Shown: positions 1,138-57,640 of the stretch, piece by piece
Layout of the letters: each line of letters begins with the position of its first letter
How positions within the stretch are numbered: position 1 is the first letter of the stretch
Origin: a phage
Sequence record: PZ091942.1
Reading direction: 5' to 3' (one strand)
Length of the DNA stretch: 64,000 bases
Position numbers and translations under genes: made by a program
Notes under the pieces: model-generated
What the model saw: only the letters and a program-made list of their open reading frames with translations
What the model was told of the DNA's origin: nothing
Databases searched by the model: none

Positions 1138-3381
1138 TTATTTTCTACTACCAAGCTTTCTATTAGGAATACGTGAATCTTTGAGAGAACTTTGTTGTTC
1201 TTTCTTAGTTTCATTTGCTTCTTTCTTTTGGAGTTCCAAAGTCTTATCTTGAATGTGAGCTTGCTGGTCAATCTTCTCCAAATCAACTTGATGATTCATA
1301 GTCAACTGTAGTTCTTTCAATACTGATTCATACTGACGAACCTGTTGCTGGAGCAGAGATAACTTATGCTTAGCTTGTTCAAGAGTAGCTGAATTGTCTT
1401 CCTTACGATTCTCAAGAGTCATATGATCTGCTGCGTTCTCTTGCTTGAATTGCAGTTCTTCTTGACGTAAACTAAAGTCATCCGCAGCTTTCTGCTGTTC
1501 GAATGTAGTACGTTCACGCTGGTCGAATGCATCAGCAATCATCTTCTGAGAAGAAGCCTGTACGTTCTCAACCTGAGCTTTAGTCATCTCGAGCTGGAGG
1601 ATTTCCATCGGAGAAGGCTGAGGCGGTTGATACTGTTCCAGAGGCATAAGATATTTATGAGTATCTTTAATTCCCATCAGTTCAAAGATTTGAGCAGTCA
1701 TGTAACGATCTTGTTCCAGAGTAAAGAGAGGTGCAAGCTGAGCATCAGCAGCAATCAGTTGCTTCAGACTAATCAGTTTCTGTGCACGTTCTGCTTTCTC
1801 ATTAGGAGAGATAGCTACAACAACTTGTAGATTGTGACGAGCTGGTAATTGTTTAGGGTTCACTTCTACCATACCACGAGGGGTTTGTACCTGTAAAGGA
1901 ACTTCACCATTTTCTCTGATAAGGTTATAAATACCACGCATTAACTCAACCATACCATTATGTGCAATGTTACGACACACCATACGGAGACGGTTCTGTG
2001 CAGCATTCATCATTAAGCCAACAGTTGCATACGCATTATCGTTCTTAAATACATCAGGGTTAATACCCATACCTAGTTTAGTAACACCTGTACGAGTTTC
2101 TTTCAATTCATCAGACATACCCAACAGACCATCAATACCCTGAGGTAGATTGTGGTATGGGAAGAGATCAATCGCATCCTGACGCTCCATTTCTACTACA
2201 CCGCCCGGACGGTTGTCTAGCAAAGAACGACGGTCGTACGTGCCTGCTATCGCCTTATAGCGACCATAGTTGGCATTGTTAACGTTATCAATATAACCGC
2301 GTACTAAAGCTGTACGGAGGTCTTGAATATCCTTAGTAATGTCATACACGGATTGACCATAGAAGGAACCCGGAATCGGATAAGGACAGAAAGTAACAAA
2401 AGGAATACTGGTAACTTCTTCACAGGAAAGAATGTGCTCGCCTGCTTGGATTACTTGGTACAATTTAGATTCTTTATTCTTATCTAGTACACCAGTACGG
2501 ATATAGTGTTCATAGACCCACACCATAGAAGATACATCTTCAGTATCTACACCAATATCTGCATCAATGTCCTGTCTCCAGTCAGTACGTGACCAAGCAA
2601 CAGTTGATTGAGTGGTATCCATTGTGTCAGTCCAATCGTTGAATGCTTCGATTTCGTCTTTAGGAAAACCAAGAGCAAGTAATTCATCTTTAGACTTACG
2701 TGTGCGATGGCAGAAATACTGAGCATCTGCAAAAGAGGTTGCATGTTCATCAACAAAGATTTGCTCTGAAGGAACATATTCAACTTTAACACGTTTAACA
2801 GTTTGTTTGTACGTGACCTTGACGTCAACCGTACCATCTTCATTTTCAGTGGTAAAGATTTCTAAATCCTGTAAACCGCCTGCTTCCATACCTTGAACAT
2901 ATGCAGCAAGAGCTTCCGGTGGAACGCCCTCTGCCTCTTCAGTTTGAGTTGAGGTTTGTTCATCCCAATAGTATTTGATAAAAGAGTTACGTGTAACCAG
3001 ACATTCCTGAGCCGCTGAGGAAATGATGTTATATCCCGGATTATCACGAAGCATGATTTGGTTGACAAGCTTAGTTGCTACATCAGCTGCATCAGAATCT
3101 GCTTGGTTGTCCGCAACAAACGTCACCGCTTCATCGCCTGAACAGAACACGTTAATGATATCTTGCAATGTACCGTTTACTGATTCCCATACTGTACGGT
3201 CTACCCAACTAGAGCTACCATCTGTAACTGGAGCAGGTAAGTTACCATAGAAGTATTCCCAAGCTTCACGAGCATAGCCTTTTACAGCAATGTCTACATA
3301 ACCTTGAGCATAATAGAATCGACGTTGAAGGTCAACGCGCAGTTCATCCAAAATATCTTCACTAAATTTATTCTTAGCCAT
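1138..3381 (-). CDS. portal protein (putative)
   Basis: 747 aa ORF directly downstream of large terminase; GAGGGAG SD; C-terminal charged coiled-coil region as in P22-type portals; assignment by position and size. Confidence 0.6.
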   Translation of the reverse strand: MAKNKFSEDILDELRVDLQRRFYYAQGYVDIAVKGYAREAWEYFYGNLPAPVTDGSSSWVDRTVWESVNGTLQDIINVFCSGDEAVTFVADNQADSDAADVATKLVNQIMLRDNPGYNIISSAAQECLVTRNSFIKYYWDEQTSTQTEEAEGVPPEALAAYVQGMEAGGLQDLEIFTTENEDGTVDVKVTYKQTVKRVKVEYVPSEQIFVDEHATSFADAQYFCHRTRKSKDELLALGFPKDEIEAFNDWTDTMDTTQSTVAWSRTDWRQDIDADIGVDTEDVSSMVWVYEHYIRTGVLDKNKESKLYQVIQAGEHILSCEEVTSIPFVTFCPYPIPGSFYGQSVYDITKDIQDLRTALVRGYIDNVNNANYGRYKAIAGTYDRRSLLDNRPGGVVEMERQDAIDLFPYHNLPQGIDGLLGMSDELKETRTGVTKLGMGINPDVFKNDNAYATVGLMMNAAQNRLRMVCRNIAHNGMVELMRGIYNLIRENGEVPLQVQTPRGMVEVNPKQLPARHNLQVVVAISPNEKAERAQKLISLKQLIAADAQLAPLFTLEQDRYMTAQIFELMGIKDTHKYLMPLEQYQPPQPSPMEILQLEMTKAQVENVQASSQKMIADAFDQRERTTFEQQKAADDFSLRQEELQFKQENAADHMTLENRKEDNSATLEQAKHKLSLLQQQVRQYESVLKELQLTMNHQVDLEKIDQQAHIQDKTLELQKKEANETKKEQQSSLKDSRIPNRKLGSRK

Positions 3382-36816: not shown

Positions 36817-37031
36817 TGGATAAATTATGGGCAGTTCGTACTAAATGGGCTAACAAAGCTCTTGGTGGTGATTGTATTCAATTATTCAACACAAGACAAG
36901 AGGCTCGTCTTGCTAAGAAAACTATAAAAGCTACAAAAGCTTTAGGAATCGCTGAAAAGGTGGAGATTCATCGTTGGATTGAAAATATCCATAACAGTGC
37001 TGGATTCATATCCAGCAAGGTTTATTACTAG
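36816..37031 (+). CDS. hypothetical small protein, tandem paralog B
   Basis: ORF track; NTRQEARLAKK...ISSKVYY parallels upstream gene. Confidence 0.5.
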   Translation: MDKLWAVRTKWANKALGGDCIQLFNTRQEARLAKKTIKATKALGIAEKVEIHRWIENIHNSAGFISSKVYY

Positions 37032-37101
37032 TTGGTAGTAGATATGATAACTCTCAAATGTATATACAGTATAAGAATATTGTATGAAACAGGAGAGAGT
37101 T

Positions 37102-41159: not shown

Positions 41160-41337
41160 AATGTTTTAAATGTGAATCAACTCTTCTCCATTTGAACTCG
41201 AAAGTAATACGGGAGCTTGCCAAAGGCTCCCCGACTAAAGGGAAGAATAAGAAGTTTGTCGAAATTAAGGTTATAGGTATACATTGTTCAGAGTGTAAAT
41301 CCTGTAGCTTCTTATATGAAGAACACGGAGGTAGGAA

Positions 41338-42078
41338 ATGAGTCGTAGAGAATCTCGGAAAGCATCACGGAGAGAATTACGTCGTGAAGCTCTCGTCACC
41401 AAGAAAGGAAAGCGGGAATTTGAAGAAGTAGTTCTTGCTAAGCCGGTAGTACCTCAGAACCAATTCCAGAGTGAGCTACTCAATGCTATCAAGACTAAAC
41501 AAGTGGTGTTCACAGACGCTCCTGCGGGCTGTGGTAAGACGTTCGTCATCACCTCTACTGTCATTGATGCACTGAAGAGTGGTAAGATTCAAAAGATTAT
41601 CATTAGCCGACCCTCTGTTGGCATGGGTAATTCTCTTGGATTACTTCCGGGCGGGCTTCGTGATAAGTTCGAACCATACCTAATGCCTATTGTTGATGTG
41701 ATTACTCAGCGATACGGTAAAGGTTTCTATGAATGTCAGCTTGGTAATGGGAACATTGAGTTTGTACCTCTGGAATATCTCCGTGGTCGATCTTTCAATG
41801 ATGCCATTGTTATTGTGGATGAGTTCCAGAATACAACCAAAGATGAGGCATTCTCTATCATGACCCGCTTGGGTGAAACATCCCAGCTGTTCTGTATGGG
41901 TGACACAAACCAGCACGATATGAAAGGTCGAGAGAGTGGTCTTACTTGGGCTACCGAGTTTATTGATGAGCACGACCTGTATGAGTTCGCTGATATTGTT
42001 GATGGCGACTCAGGTGATATTGTTCGTTCTGGTTTCTGTAAAGCAATTGTTAAAGCTATGGAAAAGGATGGTAATTAA
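41338..42078 (+). CDS. phoH: PhoH-like ATPase
   Basis: ORF track; GGAGG SD; Walker A DAPAGCGKT, Walker B IVDEFQN. Confidence 0.8.
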   Translation: MSRRESRKASRRELRREALVTKKGKREFEEVVLAKPVVPQNQFQSELLNAIKTKQVVFTDAPAGCGKTFVITSTVIDALKSGKIQKIIISRPSVGMGNSLGLLPGGLRDKFEPYLMPIVDVITQRYGKGFYECQLGNGNIEFVPLEYLRGRSFNDAIVIVDEFQNTTKDEAFSIMTRLGETSQLFCMGDTNQHDMKGRESGLTWATEFIDEHDLYEFADIVDGDSGDIVRSGFCKAIVKAMEKDGN

Positions 42079-47417: not shown

Positions 47418-47560
47418 ACGATATAAAGTCTGGCTAGACGAAGGAGCTGAGTATCCTGATGGTTCTGGCTGGAAAGTGATTCTGGAAACAGACGACATGG
47501 AGGAGGCTGAAACGAAAGCTGAATCCTTCAACTACTCATATTATGAGGACACATACGAGA

Positions 47561-48139
47561 ATGGCTGAAGTTTATTTTGCAGGTGATGGTCACCTAGGCC
47601 ATCGTAACATCTGTAACTTTAGGAAGAAGTTTAGTAGTATTGAAGAACACGACAAAGCTATCTTAGCAGCGTTTGACCATGTTACTAAACGTGATAAAAC
47701 TTTCTTTACAGGTGATTGGGTGTTTGAGAAATATGCACTTGATATTATCGCTGAAGTAAAAGGAGAGAAGCATCTTGTCTTAGGAAATCATGACAGATTA
47801 GAACTTCTCCCTGATATGATGAAAGTCTTTAGACACATCAGTGGTGATTATAAGTACAAAGAGTTTTGGGTAACTCATATTCCTATTCACTCTGATGAAA
47901 TGAGAGGAAAGTATAATATCTATGCTCATACTCATAACTCTACTATCAAAGATTGGAGATACTTTTGTACTTCTATGGAACAAATTGATTACAGAGCTGT
48001 GTCTCTGCAAGAGATTAGAAAAGAGTTTGATAAAAGAAAGGAAGATGAACTTAATCTTCTTACTAAACAGAGAGAATCTAATCTTCAGTTTCAGAGAGAA
48101 GTTAAGTATACTAATCTAAATCAGTTTATTGAATGGTAA
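47561..48139 (+). CDS. calcineurin-like metallophosphoesterase
   Basis: Internal ATG of track ORF 47543..48139; GDGHLGH, TGDWVFE, GNHD, AHTHN motifs. Confidence 0.7.
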   Translation: MAEVYFAGDGHLGHRNICNFRKKFSSIEEHDKAILAAFDHVTKRDKTFFTGDWVFEKYALDIIAEVKGEKHLVLGNHDRLELLPDMMKVFRHISGDYKYKEFWVTHIPIHSDEMRGKYNIYAHTHNSTIKDWRYFCTSMEQIDYRAVSLQEIRKEFDKRKEDELNLLTKQRESNLQFQREVKYTNLNQFIEW

Positions 48140-48345
48140 GTTAATTAGTTTTCTTTTGATTTTAATAGAGAATCAAAGTCCTAGGAGTCCTCAACCTAAA
48201 TCAAGGATTTCCTTAATTCTCTATTTTTATCTCGCAGGTGTCTCCTGCCCTTCCGGTAGTCTCTCAATTTCTAACAAACTTATGAGAGGTGGTTGTCCGC
48301 GCCTTATAGTCGTCGGTCCCGTGCAATAGTTTTACTAGCTATACC

Positions 48346-48357
48346 ATATATACATTA
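48346..48357 (-). promoter_or_regulatory. TAATGTATATA-type motif (candidate phage-sigma promoter), minus strand
   Basis: Minus-strand TAATGTATATAT; no minus-strand ORF downstream. Confidence 0.35.
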
Positions 48358-48419
48358 CTGTTTGTTATTATCTACTACCAAAAAGGTTATAGTATAATAG
48401 AACCTTATCTGTATAGGTG

Positions 48420-48431
48420 TAATGTATATAG
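48420..48431 (+). promoter_or_regulatory. TAATGTATATAG motif (candidate phage-sigma promoter)
   Basis: Exact 12-mer also on minus strand at 57629-57640, both 35-55 nt upstream of a gene start. Confidence 0.5.
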
Positions 48432-48487
48432 TATACCAACCGCTCAAAGAGAGCAACAATCTTAAATTTATATAAGGAAATATTAAT

Positions 48488-49228
48488 ATGTCTATGATCC
48501 CTGAACTGTCTGTATCCCGTAAATCCAACTACGATGTAATCCCTGATGGCGAGTACGAAGCACGCATTGTTCGTGTAGTAGGTTTAGGTGTTCACAATCG
48601 TGACCCTTGGATTGACCCTAAGACCAAAGCAGTTACTCCTAAGAACCCAGCTTTCCGTATGGACTTGGCTTTTGAACTGATTGGCGTGGATGCAACAGGG
48701 ATTGATAATGAAGGCAAACCTCTGGACCCTCGTCCTGCTTGCCAGTTTAAAACTTTCGATGTAAACCCACGAGCTAAGAATTCTGGTATTCTGAATTTGA
48801 TTAAAATGATCGACCCAAGTGTTCAAGCACTGAAAGGTGATTTGGGTTGGTTTAAAGATATGCTGTTAGGTCAGCCTGTTAACATTCTGGTTAACTCCTA
48901 TGTAAACAAAGCTGGGGAGAAGAAAAATTCTATTAAGAGTATTACTCCAATCCCGACCAAGTATCGTGATGCAGTAGGTGCTCCTCGTAGCGACCTTATC
49001 TTCTTCGAACCGTATGCTGAGACTGATGCTAACTTAACCGCTTATCAAGCTATGTTCCCATTCCAACGTAACCTTCTGACCCAAGCTAATGATGCTAAGA
49101 ACATTCCTCTGGCTGGTCGTGAAGTTACTCGCGCTTCTGATACTGAACAGAAAGATGCGACTCCTAGTATCCCTACTATTAATGAAGAGCCGCAGTCTAC
49201 CTTTGAAGAAGATGATAGCCCTTTCTAA
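48488..49228 (+). CDS. ssDNA-binding protein-like (acidic C-terminal tail)
   Basis: ORF track; AAGGAA SD; NNT-biased codons; C-terminus FEEDDSPF resembles SSB acidic tail DFDDDIPF. Confidence 0.55.
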   Translation: MSMIPELSVSRKSNYDVIPDGEYEARIVRVVGLGVHNRDPWIDPKTKAVTPKNPAFRMDLAFELIGVDATGIDNEGKPLDPRPACQFKTFDVNPRAKNSGILNLIKMIDPSVQALKGDLGWFKDMLLGQPVNILVNSYVNKAGEKKNSIKSITPIPTKYRDAVGAPRSDLIFFEPYAETDANLTAYQAMFPFQRNLLTQANDAKNIPLAGREVTRASDTEQKDATPSIPTINEEPQSTFEEDDSPF

Positions 49229-49251
49229 TGAATCTCTCCTTGTAATAGCTT

Positions 49252-49275
49252 AGCCACCTTCGGGTGGCTTTTTTC
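49252..49275 (+). terminator. rho-independent terminator (UUCG tetraloop)
   Basis: AGCCACC-TTCG-GGTGGCT then TTTTTTCG. Confidence 0.75.
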
Positions 49276-49287
49276 GTTGGGGTTAAA

Positions 49288-49635
49288 ATGGAAAAGCTTC
49301 AAAACAATATAGGTTTCTTAGTCTTTACAGCTCTGGTTTTCTTTGGTGGTATGAAGTTTGAGCAATATCGAAATGATAGTAATGCTCTTGACCAAGAGAA
49401 GAAACAGCAAGAGATAGAGATAGAGAGAGCTAAGGCTGCTGATGAAGTAGCTCAGAAAGTTCTGACTGGTTTAACTAACTGGAAGAAGAACACAGAAACT
49501 ATTTACAAAGAGATGCATTATGAAAAGACTAAGCCAGTTTTTTACAATGTGTGTGCTAGCGATGAATTTGTCAGCTTGTTCAACGAGCGACAACAGCAGG
49601 CAGCTAGTGCCCTTACCAACAAACCTAAAAGCTGA
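49288..49635 (+). CDS. i-spanin-like protein (Rz-like)
   Basis: Internal ATG of track ORF 49264..49635; N-terminal TM helix then coiled coil; contains embedded lipoprotein gene in another frame. Confidence 0.5.
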   Translation: MEKLQNNIGFLVFTALVFFGGMKFEQYRNDSNALDQEKKQQEIEIERAKAADEVAQKVLTGLTNWKKNTETIYKEMHYEKTKPVFYNVCASDEFVSLFNERQQQAASALTNKPKS

Positions 49636-50025: not shown

Positions 50026-50676
50026 ATGAAGAAAAAGACAACACCTACACGCTATCGTATTCATGGCATTCCTATTAAGTATTATCCAACCTTCGATGAA
50101 TTCTATCGAGAGAACTGGAAAGTTGTGCATAAGTATTTTATGTATGACATTAAAGATTATCACGAAGCAGAGGATGTTGCTCAGGAAGTGTTACTAAACG
50201 CTTGGCGTTTTGTGTTTGCAAAGCAAGAAGAACTTCTGCTCACTGATGAAAAAGATATTGAGCACATGACTTATCGTGTCAAGAATATCATCTGGTCGAT
50301 TCGTTCTAATCGCCAGACAGTTGGAGACCGACGTATCTACTCTATTCCAGAGGCTGATATGTTTAGACCTCCTGAGATGAATTCATGGGAAAGCCCTTTA
50401 GAGATTGCAATGGATAAGCATGACTCTACTGGAGACCCATTCTTGGAATCTAGAATCTTTTTCTTCTTCCAAGACTTAAGTGATATTATGGATACCAAGA
50501 AAATGGCAAGCATGTTCTCTATGCTCTTCCTTGGAATACCTCATGATCACATCCAGCAGGAGCTGGGAATTTCACACGGAACTTTCTATCGCCGTTATGC
50601 AGAGAATCGTGATCTATATGAAGCGGTAGTAGAGAAGCACTTTGATAAAGAAGATCTTCAAGGGATGATTCAATAA
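50026..50676 (+). CDS. ECF-type sigma-70 family sigma factor
   Basis: ORF track; AAGGA SD; region-2-like [14 protein letters not shown] and region-4 HTH-like [15 protein letters not shown]. Confidence 0.75.
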
Positions 50677-57628: not shown

Positions 57629-57640
57629 CTATATACATTA
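57629..57640 (-). promoter_or_regulatory. TAATGTATATAG motif (candidate phage-sigma late promoter)
   Basis: Minus-strand 12-mer 33 nt upstream of ATG 57595; identical to 48420-48431. Confidence 0.55.

Follow-up and report, generated by a model that had tools for sequence, protein, structure and literature searches.

A backward-facing gp36-type promoter and a candidate noncoding RNA gene in the gap before gene 40 of phiEco32-like phages

Location of the gap

A 64,000-nucleotide (nt) stretch of phage DNA (sequence record PZ091942.1), referred to as the window, was analyzed, and the subject of this study was a gap without a conserved gene at 48140-48487. The window represents a phiEco32-like podovirus, with ECBP2 as its closest relative (96% identity over 47500-49300). 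The gap is located between a plus-strand phosphoesterase gene (47543-48139), which matched Pfam Metallophos and PHROG 547, and a plus-strand gene of 246 amino acids (aa) at 48488-49228, which is the homologue of phiEco32 gene 40 (83% identity to gp40) and resembles genes for single-stranded DNA-binding (SSB) proteins. The sigma-factor gene, a homologue of gp36, lies at 50026-50676. An original prediction made from the sequence alone had placed a gap at this position between phosphoesterase and SSB-like genes, and all features that it listed were located within 1 nt of the given positions. Here, a promoter for the gp36-containing RNA polymerase that faces backwards in the gap is described, together with the conserved and folded stretch downstream of it, which we consider with moderate confidence to be a noncoding RNA gene.

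The region 47500-49300 matched 103 phage records, nearly all of which were Escherichia/Shigella podoviruses of the phiEco32 group (Gordonclarkvirinae). The gap was found in 99 of the 99 matching phage records, with 71-98% identity and irrespective of the upstream gene. This upstream gene was the phosphoesterase gene in the window and ECBP2, and gene 41, encoding a 35-aa hydrophobic/membrane peptide, in phiEco32 and most relatives.

Identification of a backward-facing gp36 promoter

The sequence tAATGTAtA is the experimentally determined promoter element of the RNA polymerase holoenzyme carrying phiEco32 gp36, and its core is TAATGTATA. Transcription by the gp36-holoenzyme is stimulated by gp79. 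Six gp36 promoters were mapped in phiEco32, upstream of genes 6, 13, 26, 40, 58, and 68. In these promoters, AATGTA is centered at -11.5, and transcription starts 6-8 bp past the element. Moreover, cryo-electron microscopy showed that the C-terminal domain of gp36 reads the -35 region by contacting G at -37 and A at -34, and mutating these bases abolished activity (PMC12276001).

On the minus strand of the gap, an extended -10 element, TAATGTATATA, was found at 48347-48357 as an exact match to the gp36 consensus. A -35 box, TTGGTAGTAGATA, was located at 48369-48381 on the same strand; it spans -39 to -27 of the promoter and includes the bases -37G and -34A. As AATGTA is centered at -11.5 and transcription starts 6-8 bp beyond the element, the predicted transcription start was assigned to A at 48342 (48340-48342, minus strand). 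The exact 11-mer TAATGTATATA occurred three times in the 64 kb, at 48347-48357 (minus strand), 48420-48430 (plus strand), and 57630-57640 (minus strand), against 0.05 expected copies, and none of 100 shuffled sequences reached three copies. The copy at 57630-57640 is placed upstream of a large minus-strand structural gene.

The minus-strand -35 box showed 13/13 identity to that of phiEco32 P68 and its window homologue (37030-37042), and the 11-nt spacer was the same. The arrangement TTGGTAGTAGATA-11 nt-AAATGTATATA, found at 37030-37066 of the window and just before gene 68 in phiEco32, is the verified P68. When related genomes in IMG/VR were compared, this bipartite -35/-10 pattern was restricted to P68 and the minus-strand site of the gap. 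Accordingly, the gap promoter shares with P68 (Pavlova et al. 2012; PMC12276001) the -35 box, the 11-nt spacer, the extended -10 element (T/A)AATGTATATA, a similar GTATA start region, and the gp36-contacted bases G at -37 and A at -34. However, unlike P68, it opposes all neighboring genes, has no gene downstream, and is outside the published six, and its activity is a prediction. Both sequence features of gp36 promoters, namely the extended -10 element and the -35 region with -37G and -34A, were present, whereas a downstream middle or late gene was not. By sequence comparison, the gap holds a seventh, complete P68-type gp36 promoter facing backwards. The original prediction had described a minus-strand motif at 48346-48357 that points into hairpin-rich sequence free of open reading frames (ORFs), and this was borne out by the element at 48347-48357, which belongs to a complete bipartite gp36 promoter with a conserved footprint.

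The conservation of the promoter was evaluated in 39 related loci, which represented 20 distinct promoter sequences. The -35 core TGGTAGTA(G/T)AT was fixed in 39/39 loci, and the -10 core TAATGTATA was unchanged in 38/39, the exception being the metagenomic locus L039 with TAATATATA. The 12 nt between the two cores varied freely among the 20 promoter variants. Fixed boxes with a drifting spacer are the signature of a promoter under selection. Furthermore, the minus-strand promoter persisted through exchange of the module downstream of it and through an insertion of approximately 150 nt between it and the plus-strand promoter P40 in myPSH2311-like phages; thus, the minus-strand promoter and P40 are independent units. 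In the accessible literature, no backward or antisense promoter, noncoding RNA, or origin was mentioned at the gap, while the primary promoter-mapping paper may have noticed the promoter.

The insertion between the divergent promoters was observed in L011:1005-1180 (myPSH2311), L018, L039, L042-L045, and L066. It encodes a plus-strand ORF of approximately 47 aa (MKFNHKYAATEKARAYVTARQSRVYKRQ...TKPTTFR), in which the differences between phages look largely synonymous. The ATG of this ORF overlaps the -35 box of the minus-strand promoter, and no promoter of its own was identified for it.

Other promoter-like sequences were also observed in the window. In the P68 homologue at 37030-37071 (plus strand; TTGGTAGTAGATA-11 nt-AAATGTATATA), the -10 region shares positions with an incomplete copy in reverse orientation, TACTGTATA (37063-37071, minus strand). 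A second antisense motif with near-consensus sequence, CAATGTATA, at 41278-41286 (minus strand) was dismissed as it lies inside coding sequence, and it is probably a chance occurrence. This site is spanned by an apparently unannotated zinc-ribbon-like peptide (CFKC...HCSECKSC...EEHGGRK*) on the plus strand at 41160-41340. The zinc-ribbon-like stretch stops just before an ATG at 41338 and has no obvious in-frame ATG start.

Noncoding nature and conservation of the transcribed stretch

The predicted minus-strand product is approximately 180-205 nt (about 190 nt) and contains neither an ORF nor an AUG. The ORFs of the gap were found on the plus strand only and started with TTG, and their frames were disrupted in relatives by 1- and 2-nt insertions or deletions and by module replacement. 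Based on these broken frames and the AUG-free minus-strand RNA, protein coding in the gap was rejected. Hypothetical genes are annotated inside the gap in GenBank, namely, L001:2394-2588 (g037c of 4E8), L061:279-458 (EK5), and L002:2189-2296 (SU7_35). These overlap the predicted RNA and both promoters, are not conserved as frames, and are probably spurious.

The distal 90 nt (48154-48243) showed a mean pairwise identity of 0.91-0.98, which was equal to or above that of the adjoining, well-conserved gene 40. The original prediction had held that a minus-strand transcript of the gap would be noncoding; the sequence was indeed noncoding, conserved, and structured, with the transcript itself being a prediction.

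Known RNA families were searched for on both strands using the long form of the region (window) and its short form (phiEco32). Rfam searches with permissive E-values gave only chance hits (<23 bits), and no family was assigned to the gap when the whole window was searched at the gathering threshold. Resemblance to the 6S, CsrB, or put-type families was not found in the Rfam searches, and these candidates were rejected. 6S RNA, phi29 pRNA, and CRISPR repeats were also set aside because their defining structural features are absent. ARAGORN detected no transfer RNA (tRNA) or transfer-messenger RNA in the gap. Across the window, the sole Rfam or ARAGORN hit was a tRNA-Arg gene (anticodon TCT) at 17927-18002 (plus strand).

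Similarly, matches outside the phage group were searched for. A blastn comparison of the gap with 5,426 E. coli genomes gave no match, and the exact core sequence was absent from 185,579 species genomes of bacteria and archaea; on these grounds, mimicry of the host or a host origin of the element was rejected. Pattern scans of IMG/VR and metagenomes returned only known relatives and unrelated chance matches. A repeated element was rejected as well, because no 11-mer of the core recurred elsewhere in the window and only the promoter boxes did.

Predicted architecture of the RNA

The structure was analyzed using an alignment of 23 distinct sequences, and the RNAalifold consensus agreed with the manual reading. 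With this alignment, the covariance analysis with related phages that the original prediction had proposed was carried out; a consensus fold was obtained, and the 5'-terminal hairpin covaried on the minus strand. From its 5' end, the predicted RNA consists of this hairpin, an exchangeable middle module, a small G+C-rich hairpin, and a long 3' hairpin referred to as the core hairpin.

The 5'-terminal hairpin, H1, starts at +1 and covers 48324-48342 on the minus strand, with AUAGCU-AGUAA-AACUAU in the window. Pair 2 of H1 was U-A or G-C, pair 5 was C-G, U-A, or A-U, and pair 4 was G-C in 12 and G·U in 11 of the 23 sequences. In total, nine double-change cells were counted, and none of 500 shuffles reached nine. 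The stem in the window contains one C·A mismatch, at pair 5, which is restored to U-A in the 98%-identical ECBP2.

The middle module occurred in two non-homologous forms, a long one of approximately 67 nt and a short one of approximately 45 nt, which were found in all combinations with the flanking parts. In the window, the long form covers 48251-48323 (minus strand) and contains hairpins at 48297-48316 and at 48261-48288, the latter formed by the inverted repeat CTCTCA (48261-48266) and TGAGAG (48283-48288). One C-G to U-A exchange was observed in the long module. The short module contains an AUUC-NNN-GAAU hairpin, in which the stem was constant and four different loops were found.

Next to the module, a GCAGG-N5-CCTGC hairpin is predicted at 48234-48248 (minus strand), formed by the inverted repeat GCAGG (48234-48238) and CCTGC (48244-48248). 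Its stem was invariant in 23/23 sequences, and its loop varied between A and C. Both inverted repeats had been listed in the original prediction, and their coordinates were confirmed.

The nearly invariant core hairpin of 62 nt covers 48164-48225 (minus strand) and comprises a lower stem of 15-16 bp, internal loops, two short upper stems, and the apical loop UUG(UA)GG(G)ACU. Its rare substitutions were in loops or linkers or, as single changes in XT32, L018, and KM01, produced a G·U pair on the minus strand. Seven GGA motifs were counted in 203 nt, of which only a single one was displayed in an apical loop when placed on the consensus fold. Overall, the 5' hairpin and the modules have covariation in support of their structure, while the fold of the invariant part is inferred.

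Two haplotypes of the core hairpin were also observed, AGTCCTAGG...AGTCCTCAACC in the window and AGTCCCTAGG...AGTCCCTACAACC in relatives, which differ by concerted small insertions. The two AGTCC(C)TA direct repeats thus vary in concert, for which one recombination event or a paired constraint could be responsible.

Strand of the predicted RNA

The folding potential of both strands was compared. When the window sequence was folded from the predicted start, the minus strand gave -49.5 kcal/mol (z = -3.75), while the plus strand gave -42.3 kcal/mol (z = -1.53). For the consensus fold, the minus strand gave -30.6 and the plus strand -25.1 kcal/mol, and the plus-strand consensus no longer contained H1. 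In the case of the core hairpin, the energies were -21.7/-23.5 kcal/mol on the minus strand and -15.7/-18.2 kcal/mol on the plus strand. Moreover, approximately 75 G·U cells were counted on the minus strand, which are A·C mismatches on the plus strand, compared with two cells of the opposite kind. The GC and AT skews of the gap were reversed, so the minus strand is purine-rich there, like the sense strands elsewhere in the window. The G·U pairs, folding energies, and purine skew agreed in favoring the minus strand, and this support is moderate rather than overwhelming.

The plus-strand promoter P40 and the neighboring genes

The plus-strand copy of the 11-mer at 48420-48430 corresponds to the published P40, since the motif is the gp36 element and the downstream gene of the window is the homologue of gene 40, a gene with a mapped promoter. 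P40, the gp36-dependent middle promoter of gene 40, has a predicted start near 48435, and its motif was invariant in the relatives. It is followed on the plus strand by a conserved gene 40 5' untranslated region, AACCGCTCAAAGAGAGCAACAATCTT, with the ribosome-binding site TAAGGAAAT (48438-48481), which was invariant or nearly so in 26 unique sequences. The original prediction had a plus-strand motif at 48420-48431 driving the SSB-like gene, in agreement with P40. It had also pointed to a TATAAT-like hexamer; TATAAT is indeed present at 48393-48398 (plus strand), but it was not conserved among relatives. In a sigma-70 promoter scan, no -35 hexamer was paired with this TATAAT. The authors of the SU10 study predicted a weak sigma-70 promoter in the homologous gap.

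The protein encoded by the gene 40 homologue had no match in Pfam, PHROG-function, or PDB sequence searches. Its C-terminus is an acidic tail of the DDxPF type, typical of SSB proteins, and a few GenBank records label the homologue as an ssDNA-binding protein. Thus, the SSB-like label of the original prediction agrees with the tail and with these records, but it was not matched by any family or PDB sequence. The acidic tail, ...(F)DDD(I/V/S)PF (49205-49225 in the window), ends gp40 as well as the homologues with 40-47% identity to it from 7-11-like, Proteus, and Aeromonas phages. An acidic C-terminal tail of this type is a hallmark of bacterial SSB proteins.

The distribution of the gap was narrower than that of the neighboring genes. 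In 7-11-like, GAP52-like, Proteus, Cronobacter, and Aeromonas phages, 75-100 bp precede the gp40 homologue, and the gap element was not found there. The 7-11-like phages retain the gp40 homologue, sigma-factor, and exonuclease genes yet lack the gap element. In the distant relative PKM.Lu.22.1, a gene-free, relatively G+C-rich stretch of 240 bp was observed directly upstream of the sigma-factor gene (L026:2268-2509). It ends in a strong terminator-like hairpin, AGCCCCTCTTCGGAGGGGTTTTC, and its sequence is unrelated to the gap element. This stretch may be another noncoding RNA.

Antisense potential and comparison with known RNAs

The predicted RNA (48342 to approximately 48150) is complementary to the sequence directly beyond the upstream stop codon at 48139. 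Its conserved part overlaps untranslated sequence only, while read-through would cover the phosphoesterase gene here and gene 41 in phiEco32. The original prediction had proposed a transcript antisense to the 3' end of the phosphoesterase gene; this does not hold in general, because gene 41 is upstream in phiEco32 and most relatives and because coding sequence would be overlapped only on read-through.

As an RNA, the product would work most like the antisense RNAs of the lambda OOP type. Lambda OOP RNA and P22 sar are likewise small noncoding RNAs made from an opposite-strand promoter and complementary to the 3' end region of the adjacent operon, and the gap RNA would be expected, like OOP, to act with RNase III on the duplex. 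However, OOP is 77 nt in length, has a clear intrinsic terminator, and overlaps the coding end of cII, whereas the gap RNA is predicted to be approximately 190 nt, no terminator was found for it, and its conserved part overlaps only untranslated sequence. In addition, the gap promoter depends on a phage sigma factor, and the upstream gene varies among relatives. As it has neither a terminator nor a conserved coding target, the gap RNA was not filed as a member of the OOP type.

The core hairpin was also compared with the RNase III processing hairpins of T7 and with bidirectional intrinsic terminators. Like these, it is a long irregular hairpin that contains internal loops, lies between transcription units, and is flanked by an A tract at one end and a T tract at the other end. 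Unlike these, it folds with markedly higher stability on the strand opposing the genes, where only 2-3 U follow it.

Proposed function and alternative explanations

Read as a whole, a conserved noncoding RNA gene driven by the backward gp36 promoter is the favored explanation, and we hold it to be moderately probable. Its predicted product is most likely an undescribed small phage RNA. From mid-infection, the host RNA polymerase with gp36 would start at approximately 48342 and transcribe leftwards, producing a folded noncoding RNA of approximately 180-205 nt with the four parts described above. The two terminal hairpins would stabilize the RNA. At the long hairpin, trimming or RNase III-type processing may generate its 3' end; alternatively, transcription may continue and yield a longer antisense RNA. 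Since its sequence is perfectly complementary to the untranslated 3' end of the upstream operon, the RNA would pair with transcripts that reach or cross this end, and such pairing would keep the upstream genes and the P40 unit separate in their expression. The same hairpin, read on the plus strand with UUUUU after it, probably also serves as a signal that ends the upstream operon. A stable antisense RNA is the favored function, although we hold this step with clearly less confidence than the RNA gene itself.

Several observations weigh against this explanation. The minus-strand promoter is absent from the six published gp36 promoters, and in L039 (contig ERZ1034915 NODE-75, approximately 3090-3100, minus strand) the critical -11 position carries a G-to-A change, giving TAATATATA. 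In neither the window nor phiEco32 was an intrinsic terminator found on the minus strand after the structured region, so that the extent of the predicted RNA is not delimited by one. Because the upstream gene differs among relatives, there is no single conserved antisense target gene. In some relatives, mononucleotide shuffles gave similar z-scores on both strands. As the core stems never vary, pairing there is beyond covariation testing and is only inferred. Furthermore, the core loops are as invariant as the stems, which is beyond the needs of an antisense RNA and hints at protein binding or a role at the DNA level. As for L039, the rest of its unit is intact, and the change of the -11G, a base read by gp36, may stem from a sequencing error or mark a promoter that has been silenced naturally.

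A role of the core on the plus strand was considered, in which it would mainly be a terminator or an RNase III-type processing hairpin of the upstream operon, and the minus-strand promoter would be a DNA element only, serving as a roadblock or as a polymerase sink that insulates P40. On the plus strand, the core hairpin begins approximately 25 nt past the upstream stop codon and is followed by the invariant TTTTTATCTC, with TTTTT at 48224-48228; the end of an operon just ahead of an independent promoter is the expected position of a terminator, and the failure to find a terminator on the minus strand fits as well. However, the terminator scan made no call for this hairpin, whose stem is A+U-rich and whose loop is approximately 40 nt. 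Of the 10 pairs in the stem beside the U tract, only two are G-C, and the hairpin loses 6 kcal/mol of stability on the plus strand, where three invariant wobble pairs and one G·U pair seen in a single sequence become A·C mismatches. This explanation also leaves the covarying hairpin exactly at the predicted minus-strand start and the hairpins of the middle module unexplained, and we regard it as unlikely. Far less probable still is that the minus-strand motif is a chance or relic promoter copy and the gap a mere spacer. Its absence from the six mapped promoters and the relative mutated at -11 would fit such a view, but three exact 11-mers were found against 0.05 expected, a matching -35 box stands at the correct spacing, both boxes are kept while the spacer drifts, and the downstream sequence is conserved like the adjoining coding gene.

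Two further explanations retain the minus-strand transcript and give it another role. In the case of a transcription-primed replication origin, the minus-strand promoter would yield a structured primer transcript that stays hybridized to the AT-rich DNA just past the core hairpin and primes leading-strand synthesis. Transcription-primed origins of this kind include T4 ori(34) and ori(uvsY). The gap resembles the T7 primary origin (promoters 1.1A/1.1B), T4 ori(uvsY) with its middle promoter and unwinding element, and ColE1 RNA II in having a phage-specific promoter of mid-infection that points into gene-free and then AT-rich DNA, a structured transcript without a terminator, and a position within a replication gene cluster. 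A phage-specific middle-class promoter followed by no gene and no terminator suits an origin, and the invariance of both stem and loop fits joint constraints on RNA and DNA. The lowest G+C content of the neighborhood, 27%, was found directly downstream at 48050-48199, which is partly coding in the window; the unit adjoins the SSB-like gene within a replication and nucleotide-metabolism cluster; and the two AGTCC(C)TA direct repeats of the core are approximately one helical turn apart. However, the GC skew was uninformative, as the cumulative skew followed gene orientation without an inflection at the gap. Covariation in the 5'-terminal hairpin points to selection for RNA stability, a property with no obvious use in a primer, and neither this hairpin nor the exchangeable module is a feature of the origins named above. 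The 7-11-like relatives possess homologues of the adjacent genes but not the gap, and no origin in this phage group was mentioned in the accessible literature. Initiation at this site is conjecture, and an origin was judged unlikely. An RNA acting in trans, which would bind or decoy a protein (CsrA, Hfq, ProQ, a phage RNA-binding protein, or a host defense factor) with the exchangeable middle module as its specificity domain, or act as a put-like antitermination element, is quite improbable when taken as a whole. The invariance of core loops as well as stems, the exchange of two unrelated middle modules between otherwise similar scaffolds, and four AGGA/AGGGA motifs within approximately 95 nt, one of them in an apical loop, would agree with it, as would a structure directly behind a promoter with no terminator found. 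Nevertheless, the longest complementarity elsewhere in the window was 12 nt, which is the chance level, and pairing with the gene 40 leader was not significant, as 34 of 300 shuffles were as good. In contrast to known CsrA sponges, the predicted fold has most of its GGA motifs in base pairs, so that the many loop-displayed GGAs of a CsrA-sequestering RNA of the CsrB/RsmZ type were not found, and no resemblance to Rfam families, including 6S, CsrB, and put-type, was detected.

Within the favored explanation of a gp36-driven RNA gene, the invariant loops and the swappable module suggest something more specific than antisense pairing. A modular functional RNA driven by the phage sigma factor and distinct from a simple antisense RNA, which would be either the long-sought origin primer of the phiEco32-like phages or a scaffold whose invariant hairpin binds a phage or host protein and whose long or short module sets the specificity (for example, a decoy for host defense), was regarded as unlikely.

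Significance for the phiEco32 group

P40 and the gp36 element were already published; the backward promoter and the conserved, folded noncoding stretch, as read from sequence comparison, are, to judge from the accessible literature, newly described here. Phage-encoded sigma factors are studied with phiEco32 as the reference system, and all six gp36 promoters on its transcription map precede genes. If the proposed explanation is true, a seventh promoter, facing backwards and as good a match as P68, would add a noncoding product to the phiEco32 programme. It would also provide a handle on the separation or shut-off of the middle transcription units and on the replication start site. Since the isolation of Kuraviruses as therapeutic coliphages is widespread, it would be worth knowing of a conserved RNA gene in their genomes that has escaped annotation.

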